64,000 nucleotides of DNA from Treponemataceae bacterium (GCA_963678065.2 CAXXVZ010000003.1:1120001-1184000); one strand, 5' to 3'. Positions 29,742 through 32,700 are shown, counted from the first letter of the stretch. A program made the numbers.

Positions 29742-32700
29742 TGATGGGCCTCTCCCTGTCGTCGCGCCCCACACGGGCGCGTGGATTGAAACTCGTCTCG
29801 ACTCGACCTCGCGGACACTGCCAATCCGTCGCGCCCTGGACTTGCCCCGACCGAATGGACAGGTAGTTAAGCCACTCTCGTCGCCTGTGATACCGGCGGT
29901 TTCATCGCATTGTGCGAATGCCGCCTGATCCGATTGTAGTAGACCTCGATGTACTCGAAAAGATCATGACGGACCCTTTCTCTGGAATATGTACCATTCA
30001 GAGTCTCTAATTCCCGTTTCAACGTTTTGAAAAAGGATTCCGCACAGGCATTATCCCAGCAATTGCCCTTTCGGCTCATGCTTTGAACAATTCCTTTCCT
30101 CTCCGCCAGTAGTGACCTCAATGCGGTGGAACAATACTGGACGCCCCGATCAGAGTGGAAGAGAAGTCCTGGCTTATACCCATATCGGATAACGGCCATG
30201 ACAAAAGCATCCACCACAATCTGGGAGGTCATGTCATCGCGGGTCGACCAGCCGACGACGTGACGGGTGCAGAGGTCGATAACGACACACAGATACAGCC
30301 AGCCCTCGGTTGTCGGGCAATACGTGATGTCAGAAACCCAGACGAGACCCGGCAGCGGTACGTCAAACTGTCGGTCAAGCAGGTTTTCCGCTACCGGTTC
30401 TCCATGATTCGAGTCTGTCGTGACAACGTATTTCTTCTTCGGCAGGCTTCCCAGATCATTCTCCCGCATGAGTCTGGCCACCCGTTTACGCGACACTCCA
30501 TAGCCTGTATCGCGCAATTCTTCGTGGATGCGCGGACTCCCGTATCGCCGGTGATGCTGTTTCTGGATGGCTTTGATCTTCTTGACCAATTCGGCATCCA
30601 GCAGTGCGTGACGGCTTGGTTTTCTCGATTTCCACGCATAGTACCCCGAAACGGAGACTTCCAGATATGTCGCCATCTTCCGTATCGACCACTGCCTCCG
30701 GTGGTCGACCATGAACTGGTAGACTCGGGCTAATTCCCCCTTCGGGGTACCGAGAAGATGGCGACGGCTTTTTTTCTATGTTTCCTGTCAACCTCCGGCT
30801 CCGAGAATTGCCAATCCTGACCTCTTGAGCTTGAGAGCAAATATCATGTCATCCGTGTACCGGTAGCGTTCCCCTCGTGTGAGCAAAATATAGACCATCT
30901 CGAGCAGCTTCCGGGCGGTCGCGACGACCGCGATAGAAGGCGCTTTCCCTCTGGAGATCATTGCCTCATAGTGGGACTTGAGCGGGTTTGAGCATTTACT
31001 GCGAATAAGTCCCCAGGCGCTCTGGACAAGCAGGCCCCGAAGATGCGCATTGCCTCGCTTCGTGATTGAGCCCTTGCGTTCAAGTTCTCCCGATTCGTGA
31101 AGCCGTGGCGACAACCCAACATAGTTGACCAACTGGGCTGGTCCGCTAAAGCGGCGCATGTCTCCCGCGTATGCCAGGATGGCCATCGTCGTCTTGATGC
31201 CAAAGCCAGGGAGCGACATGAGGATGTGCGCAGACTCCCCGCCCTTCATCACCGAAGCCCCGATCTCTTCGACCAACCCGGCGAGGATCTGCTCATATTC
31301 CGAGATCATGTGATGGAGGTTAATGGCCTCCGTCTTGCTGAAGCCGGCAAGTTCGGTTTCGATGAGCCGTTCCCTCGTGGCTGCCTTCTTAAGCTGGGCC
31401 TTGGTATGGTCAGGAATGCCACATCGGAGAAACACCGCATGAAGACGGTTTATAAGGCGAGTTCTATCCCTGCGAAAGCGGTCTTCATGGGACGAAAGTG
31501 CCCGACGATCCATCTCTTCATCCGAGGGCACTGGCACTGTCGGCAATTCGTCAGCATTGAACTTTTGCACAAGTCGCGCGAGCTTGAGCGCGTCCTCACG
31601 GTCCGACTTCTTGAGCGACTTATGGATCACCGCCAGGTCAGCCGCGTTCAGGACAAGGACCTGTATGTCGGGGTGCTCCATGAGTTCCTTCGCTATCTGG
31701 AATGAGGAGGTACCAGCTTCCATCGCGATGGTGTCGCCTGGTCGAACCCTTTCCGCAAGGCTGCGGCGGCCTCGAATATCGAGCTTGCCATTCCACCGCT
31801 GGATTGATTCGGTCTTTCCATCGATGGCAACCGCCTCGTAGGTCCTCTTCGAAAGGTCGATGCCAATAAAACGCCCTGTTTCCTTCCCCATGCGCAGCCT
31901 CCCGGGAAAAAGATCGGAGCCGGAAGTCTTTGAGCGATACAACGTGGTACTACATTCTTCTATTCGCAGTGGCGTTGCCGCAGCATCGTCCTGCACCCTG
32001 ATTTTCGACGACCGGCCTGGGCATAATCTTTTAGCCGGGGTCATACCCCACAAAGCGCGTACTGCCTGCCGCCGGCTCCCGGGTTCCGTCGAACCCAGCC
32101 TACCACGATCGTTGTACCGCCAGGGGAAACATATCATCTTTTAGTATTGCATTCGCCTCACGAAGTTCATCATTTTCCTTTTTCAGCCTGGTCATTTCCT
32201 GATCACGTGCATTCCCTTGTCCGGTAAATGCTTGTTTGTGTATTTCCTGACTCTCCCGTCGCCACCGGCACAATAGTCCAGGATCAATTCCCAAGTCTTT
32301 GGCCACGTTCCGGGCACTCCTGCCTGACCGTTCCAAGTGTTCAAGTGCTTCTTTCTTGAACTCTGCCGCGTACTTCCTTCTTTTGTCTTCCATACCCTCT
32401 CCTCTCCTTATTCTCGGAGAGGCTTAACTCATGCTCCACTGGTTTGGGGTAGGTCCACCCCACACGGGCGCGTGGATTGAAACATGTTAATCATCCGAAC
32501 GCGGGAGCGGAGGTAGGGTCGCGCCCCACACGGGCGCGTGGATTGAAACGTTGAAATTATGGACGATCTCAGTCCATACTCCCGTCGCGCCCCACACGGG
32601 CGCGTGGATTGAAACAAAGAGGACACAGGGAAGACCCATCCGGCATTTGTGTCGCGCCTCACGCGGGCGCGTGGATTGAAACCCCATCAGGTCAACGGCT

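Follow-up and report, generated by a model that had tools for sequence, protein, structure and literature searches.

The window, the 64,000-nucleotide stretch of Treponemataceae DNA analyzed here (GCA_963678065.2, CAXXVZ010000003.1:1120001-1184000; coordinates count from its first letter), carries an IS3-family element that is interrupted by an IS110-family element and lies within a repeat of a type I-C CRISPR array. The array (20493..33080, plus strand) has 139 matched repeats before the insertion and 7 after it, on the trailer side. The associated type I-C cas genes lie at about 12273-20236, with cas3 after cas7; Cas5, Cas8c, and Cas7 score well below their NCBIfam cut-offs (Cas8c 20.5 versus 218.65 bits) and Cas1c is typical, so that the operon encodes a divergent Cascade. 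Comparison of the array spacers with the inserted element gives nothing beyond chance matches of 8-14 nt. Two spacers (26485-26518 and 29594-29627) match the assembly itself, 34/34 at C5:1110621-1110654 and 33/34 at C3:1814423-1814456, both inside ordinary-looking ORFs, possibly reflecting self-targeting or a strain mixture. The array also contains stretches of identical duplicated spacers (28995-29330 and 26285-26381), among them a four- to five-fold unit near 29035-29298.

The host element (29837..32457, minus strand) spans 2,621 bp including the IS110 and has the characteristics of the IS3 family: TG...CA ends with imperfect inverted repeats, an orfA with a helix-turn-helix, an orfB with a DDE domain in the -1 frame, and a 3-4 bp target duplication. 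Its 41-nt left inverted repeat (32417..32457) is 71% complementary to the right repeat (29837..29877). The orfA gene (32100..32393) matches HTH_Tnp_1 over residues 4-82, and its product is native through ...AILK, the next 13 residues coming from the left end of the IS110. The orfB frame (29867..30768) matches HTH_21 and rve (NF033516, 327.5 bits; cut-off 160) and is free of stop codons, with its first ATG at 30712; all four features are on the minus strand.

A genome-wide survey had reported two identical copies of this composite and no third or empty copy of the IS3. Both points are borne out: the second copy lies at C3:1907586-1910206, and blastn and tblastn searches of the 5-contig assembly find no other. 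The CRISPR copy is flanked, as reported, by an exact 3-bp GGG duplication (29834-29836 and 32458-32460). The second copy lies inside an IS630-like element, identified from its ORF motifs, whose orfB it interrupts, and its GGG/GTG flanks form an inexact duplication (C3:1907583-1910209). A homologous IS630-like gene at about 249,800 on C3 suggests that GTG was the original target of this copy, in which case the odd GGG equals the flank of the CRISPR copy. Either a point mutation or a linker carried over from an IS3 circle could account for this flank; the latter would set the direction of movement as CRISPR to IS630.

The IS110-family element (30776..32138, minus strand) comprises 1,363 bp between two A-runs, plus one AA core. 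Its 367-amino acid recombinase (30788..31891, minus strand) matches DEDD_Tnp_IS110 and Transposase_20 (PF01548 and PF02371; NF033542, 211.7 bits, cut-off 140) and retains residues D12, E58, D97, D100, and S267, that is, the DEDD RuvC-like domain and the Tnp domain with catalytic serine by which the family is broadly defined. Close relatives of the protein include one named for Rectinema, which makes a spirochete of that group the probable host. The left end of the element is separated from the recombinase ATG by a 247-nt non-coding region, and the right end lies 12 nt past the stop codon. A 449-amino acid open frame that runs through the non-coding region (cluster member P0121) was considered as an alternative gene start and rejected, as it is not kept in relatives. 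Perfect 9-bp sub-terminal inverted repeats flank the element (left, 32125..32133; right, 30777..30785; both minus strand), and extend to 10 bp in close relatives, which have a matching extra base on both sides. The left repeat holds the predicted -10 box of a circle-junction promoter, of which the TTGACA -35 box starts at 30791; in a circle with a 2-nt core and a 5-nt left end, the two boxes would be spaced by 17 nt.

The survey described the insertion as splitting the A7G slippery site between orfA and orfB. The empty junction is indeed A7G with an orfA end of ILKKAVAIFS, as seen at a contig joint in sequencing run X5 and in an empty IS3 of genome G049 that is 66% identical to the host IS3. 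The predicted products of this A7 form are a 98-amino acid OrfA and a 386-amino acid fusion, in frames that would fit a -1 slip on A7G. However, the window allele is not simply split, as the IS110 has four A (32139..32142, minus strand) on its left side and an entire A7G (A-run at 30769..30775, minus strand) on its right. In a further IS3, 62% identical (L111, G059:C19), an N immediately precedes the A-run and the open frame is 392 amino acids long, which may reflect an in-frame fusion or an assembly flaw.

This junction was examined in four sequencing runs out of the 22 listed, and these come from four studies. The right part of the A-run is A7 in the window and in run X4 and A5 in runs X5, X7, and X10. 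In X5, an independent groundwater run, a contig joint (30771->32139) skips 1367 nt and leaves A7G, at a depth of 42.6 versus 47.6 for the filled form; since the IS3 ends also continue into further flanks, both forms coexist in X5. No empty joint is present among those listed for X4, X7, and X10, from which contigs drop rare forms, and no circle junction among those listed for the four runs. In relatives of the element (see below), the left junction has exactly four A in every filled IS3 site, while the right junction has 7 (L019, L021), 6 (L020, L022, L025), or 5 (L033). Four of these six right junctions are 1-2 A short of the A9 of empty hosts, and half of all right junctions observed are off register.

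Three lines indicate that the core is 2 nt, AA, and would correspond to the last two A of the left run. First, empty A9 compares with filled A4+A7 in L019 and L021, and empty A7 with filled A4+A5 in X5. Second, in 32/35 loci the donor guide agrees with the dinucleotide that follows the right end, including 11/11 of those with AA. The third is the 17-nt promoter spacing across the predicted circle junction. With a 2-nt core, the window allele carries two surplus A, and precise excision would leave A9, which translates to 180 amino acids in frame 0 and 99 after a -1 slip. Clean excision from the window allele is therefore predicted to yield a dead IS3, giving no full OrfAB by a -1 slip.

In phase variation of the IS492 type, precise excision restores an interrupted reading frame. 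The survey's finding invoked such a regulatory switch, in which scarless excision of the IS110 restores A7G, turns OrfAB on, and explains the movement of both copies. We regard this as improbable. The similar depth of empty and filled forms in X5 speaks for it, and the X5/X7/X10 allele, together with L019 and L021, would regain the native run under a 2-nt core, so that the frame is restored on paper for an X5-type allele. For the window allele it is not, given the short A9 products, and the right junctions of L020, L022, L025, and L033 would likewise miss the native A9. Moreover, an excised IS3 would move empty, whereas both genome copies are filled and share the same two surplus A. The easiest account of this sharing is that the composite moved whole, already filled, by means of OrfAB provided in trans. 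Published experiments point both ways. For IS621, PMC13626964 describes post-excision junctions detected by PCR at a low level and in need of read-through transcription, which the IS3 promoter could provide here to drive excision. CazIS110-1, as far as the preprint text describes it, copies out, with the original copy kept in 93/93 colonies and the target never regenerated (10.1101/2025.10.25.684509). Finally, there is the lack of an empty joint among those listed for the other three runs, with the reservation given above, and no signal-dependent control is visible.

The survey noted that the non-coding region folds. Taken alone, it does so no better than shuffled sequences (z +0.74; 149/200 fold as well), and the backing for a two-domain structure comes solely from covariation across relatives. 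In 13 chosen relatives, from about 50 with the region, 94.9% of cells are paired, compared with 31-46% for slid controls, and 16/24 pairs have two-sided changes; none of 500 shuffles scores as high on four of five measures. These figures lean favorable, as the structure was derived from the same alignment on which it was scored.

The first domain corresponds to a predicted target-binding loop (32007..32076, minus strand), with two helices that show compensatory changes, and is ordered as a complement of the right flank, a hairpin, and then a stretch equal to the left flank. The right target guide (32052..32060, minus strand) complements the top strand to the right of the core, with its 5 proximal nt matching AAAGC, or 8 nt with one bulge. 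The left target guide (32029..32036, minus strand) has the same sense as the left flank plus core, and its 6 proximal nt match exactly; the three bases that follow it equal the left end of the IS110. The 6-nt match to each side noted previously thus becomes guides of 8 and 9 nt, with 6 + 5 contiguous matches at the site. In the predicted donor-binding loop (31953..32001, minus strand), the left donor guide (31956-31963) equals the right end, AA, and the start of the left end, and a right donor guide is not clearly identified. A structured two-loop non-coding end with putative guides to both target and donor is as expected of the IS110 family in the broad sense.

A protein search recovers a tight group of recombinases at 59-87% identity, and a metagenome scan with the alignment of this group yields 68 loci, which are related to each other and come partly from the same samples. 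The survey had cautioned that the one relative it compared, which is 80-86% alike and lies outside the loci fetched here, is not in an IS3. Against this caveat, 11 of the 15 loci of relatives at 61-70% identity with a usable end place that end in the slippery A9G run of another IS3 clade. Counting all relatives above 55% and the window element, 12/16 loci, and 17/24 ends, abut orfA/orfB of an IS3 at a slippery run. More distant relatives (34-44%, 37 loci) have no IS3 match within 300 nt at any of 53 ends, with probes from two IS3 clades. The IS3 hosts of the close relatives (orfA end ENEWLKKKY, here the WLKKKY clade) are only about 30% identical to the window IS3, which puts the minimum at two independent arrivals, a separate one in each clade. 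The site is A9-GTAC in all five empty WLKKKY-clade copies recovered from genomes G048 and G040; the search pattern prescribed the left 13 bases of these sites and left the last four free.

The specificity is loose. L018, L024, and L026 occupy degenerate A-rich sites outside slippery signals, while L035 and the left end of L025 are in non-IS3 sequence, at loci that both look chimeric; together, these are four of the 15 loci plus one end. On L026, a truncated left end of another IS110 variant (L026:5060-5135), also following T-AAAA, lies 1 kb from the full element on a contig crowded with IS remnants. For the window sub-lineage (with proteins P0012, 87%, and P0002, 72%), the target is defined by one site. 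Searches of several collections did not find closer kin: a GTDB pattern scan with the single recombinase protein gives only 25-43% matches, 400 order-level genomes searched at E<=1e-95 yield no close relative beyond one 39% element, 68 family genomes yield no match for the non-coding DNA, and a search of viral contigs yields no close relative.

The survey also doubted that guides and flanks covary. In the wider set they do, with cognate pairs outscoring non-cognate pairs for both the right guide (6.9 versus 5.2, n=25) and the left (6.7 versus 4.8, n=28), and 0/20,000 permutations scoring as high, although kin are not independent in this comparison. The left-end picks of L010, L063, and L064 were dropped from this test, that of L018 was corrected by eye, and L017, L053, and L057 have no anchor. 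The guides of one relative (L027) spell a 17-mer that is identical, 17/17, to 5/5 empty IS3 sites. With 0-1 mismatch allowed, the 5.27-Mb genome of the window contains no match to this 17-mer; at 2 mismatches there are four, of which three are the slippery sites of the genome's other IS3. This second IS3 is present as three identical copies (C3:112,600-113,900; C3:1,736,440-1,737,730; C2:667,510-668,800), each with an intact A9-GTAC site two mismatches from the target of the relatives' guides, and one copy adjoins a distant (30%) IS110. All three sites are unoccupied, which fits the changed guide of the window element, whose right guide reads AAAGC where relatives have a longer A-run. The right guide is altered toward the element's own A7GC site.

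Compared with their own site, the window guides are exact over the central 11 nt, an 11-mer that occurs nowhere else in the genome, and match at 11.5/17 positions ungapped, a score that about 6,000 genome positions reach under a simple scheme. As judged from such comparisons, the case for guide targeting is strong for the lineage and moderate for the window variant alone. The central proposal of the survey, RNA-guided targeting of an IS3 frameshift signal, is well supported by the second IS3 clade, by the covariation of guides and flanks, and by a relative whose guides spell the empty site.

A lineage that simply prefers A-rich homopolymers could produce the same picture, the window case being one off-target insertion, by a guide intended for some other site, that was later copied in trans. 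The modest fit of the window guides, the use of non-IS3 A-rich sites by L018, L024, L026, and the left end of L025, and the probable derivation of both genome copies from one event are all compatible with this. However, the relatives' guides extend over the non-A bases to the left and right of the run and match the IS3 site in full, and ends of close relatives lie mostly in slippery sites although A-runs are plentiful (there are 92 A7GC motifs in the genome). The change in the window guide also goes toward GC, the bases that follow the run of its own IS3, and we consider a plain homopolymer preference unlikely.

Comparison of hosts and passengers within the WLKKKY clade suggests repeated arrival. 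Between L027 and L074, the host orfA is 89% identical and the recombinase 71%, while between L021 and L023 the values are 75% and 83%; in addition, IS110 variants that are 95-99% identical occur both inside and outside IS3 elements. Together, these sequence relationships would suggest four or five arrivals in this clade. Still, a test of 236 columns does not reject monophyly of the filled hosts (p-AU 0.064), so that only the overall minimum of two arrivals is firm. That result speaks for a single ancient insertion after which the composites descended together without further targeting, but such a history is very improbable, as it leaves the second, 30%-identical IS3 host and the discordant identities unexplained, and filled orfA stretches are without stops, the L019 protein being identical to those of the empty copies L093 and L106.

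Among the plasmid records searched, the named element closest to that of the window is ISLin1 from Leptospira (35% amino acid identity over 98%). At locus L108, its end motifs, the scaffold of its upstream RNA, and the order of its loops are those of the window element, and its guides and target are different. The source data of PMC11187229 list ISLin1 under the IS110 family, in a row where it is about 16-25% identical to the approximately 200 elements shown. To speak of a new bridge RNA system, as the survey did, is therefore an overstatement; we are dealing with an uncharacterized ISLin1-like clade of known mechanism. Many relatives at 36-40% insert into short tandem CACAGAG-like repeats of period 8-9 with matching guides (L012, L040, L042, L049, L055, L056, L059, L062, L066-L069, L071, and L072), which, from these matches, appear to be another target class for the clade.

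ISEc21 and ISMch6, as presented in PMC11187229, resemble the window element in being RNA-guided IS110 elements with an upstream non-coding region and a natural target in IS3-family transposase genes, and natural redirection of a guide is described there in a relative. In contrast, ISEc21 targets codons around the DDE motif's second D rather than the orfA/orfB slippery run, and places the bottom-strand match first, where the window element has the top-strand complement first, as in IS1111; the window element also differs from it in its 9-10-bp perfect sub-terminal repeats. The bridge recombinases IS621 and ISCro4 (PMC11208160; PMC13626964) share the DEDD and serine recombinase and, as predicted for the window element, a left-end RNA with target and donor loops, a 2-nt core, and a promoter formed at the circle junction. 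Only their C-terminal domain aligns to the window recombinase (E 5e-13 and 5e-10), and the window element departs from them in an AA core within a homopolymer, a reversed guide order, and longer sub-terminal repeats.

Likeness to the IS1111 group (IS4321/IS5075, ISKpn4, ISPa11, ISEc11) lies in the distance of the sub-terminal repeats from the junctions (left 7 nt, right 3 nt, both core copies counted), in the top-strand guide coming first, and in a habit of targeting repeated or mobile-element sites, according to PMC11187229 and PMC11208160. The IS1111 RNA is usually downstream of the gene, with published exceptions, whereas that of the window element is upstream, and IS1111 repeats are 11-13 bp rather than 9-10 bp (PMC11187229). 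From the narrow IS110 group (IS621/ISEc21 type), as defined in that text, the window element has the long upstream non-coding region (247 nt) and lacks the bottom-strand-guide-first order and the absent or short repeats. It is an IS110-family member that fits neither subgroup cleanly, because its RNA is upstream but its repeats and guide order are IS1111-like. CazIS110-1, likened here from its description in the preprint text (10.1101/2025.10.25.684509), has RNA loops that pair with both element junctions, and the left guide of the window element similarly runs into the left end; separate top-strand transfers at each junction would fit a fixed left and a variable right junction.

Considered together, these data make it quite likely that the window contains an intact ISLin1-like IS110 in the frameshift A-run of an IS3, with an upstream region that encodes a bridge RNA aiming at slippery sites as a conserved, multi-copy, and host-neutral landing pad. 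In this model, a circular copy would form with right end, AA, and left end joined, creating a putative TTGACA-17-TATGTT promoter for the RNA. By sequence, the left guide matches the AA core together with the codons that immediately precede the run, while the right guide is complementary to the remainder of the run and to what follows it. In close relatives the guide pair spells the A9-GTAC site of the WLKKKY clade, and the window right guide is changed to AAAGC, as in the A7GC site of an ILKKA-type IS3. Insertion is always after the fourth A and co-oriented with the IS3, and parts orfA from orfB, so that OrfAB cannot be made. The variation of up to 2 A at the right junction is probably due to register slip in the homopolymer or to later replication slippage.

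The crippled composite keeps both IS3 ends, and from the coexistence of empty and filled forms in the X5 population we infer that OrfAB, acting in trans, copied it whole. RNA and recombinase are likely supplied by read-through from the IS3's own promoter; since no sigma-70 promoter consensus is present in 31880-32480, this too we can only infer. The IS110 likely leaves by copy-out, and the IS3 therefore stays off. Rather than serving as an on/off switch, the IS110 probably lives as a parasite on other transposons. A bolder version holds that the lineage is specialized on translational recoding signals and re-guided between IS3 clades, with rare exits that, owing to the variable register of landing in a homopolymer, would rewrite the run (A7 restored, A9 dead, A5/A8 permanently fused in frame), making it an RNA-guided editor of frameshift control; we offer this as a speculation with a slim chance of being right.

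What is new is the target class and its natural reprogramming within a known mechanism, the use of the site being real, recurrent, and most likely RNA-guided. In the literature searched, which lay outside subscription papers, ISfinder notes, and bioRxiv supplements, no paper was found on an IS110 aimed at a frameshift signal. The programmed frameshift signal would be an added target class for the RNA-guided IS110 family. A slippery run suits a fixed guide, as it is conserved at the nucleotide level in many IS3 copies, costs no host gene, and has a promoter just upstream. The A9-GTAC and A7-GC sites form a natural reprogramming pair with a negative control in the same genome, and the variable right junctions provide a natural case of slippage on homopolymer targets that bears on guide design. 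The ISLin1-like clade, uncharacterized and widespread, with a mixed architecture of upstream RNA and IS1111-type loop order, is a source of recombinases, with about 40 natural guide variants among the fetched loci. For the IS3 hosts, split copies may damp IS3 movement, because in ISSau2 OrfA or OrfB alone lowered transposition by OrfAB, as reported in PMC5771124.
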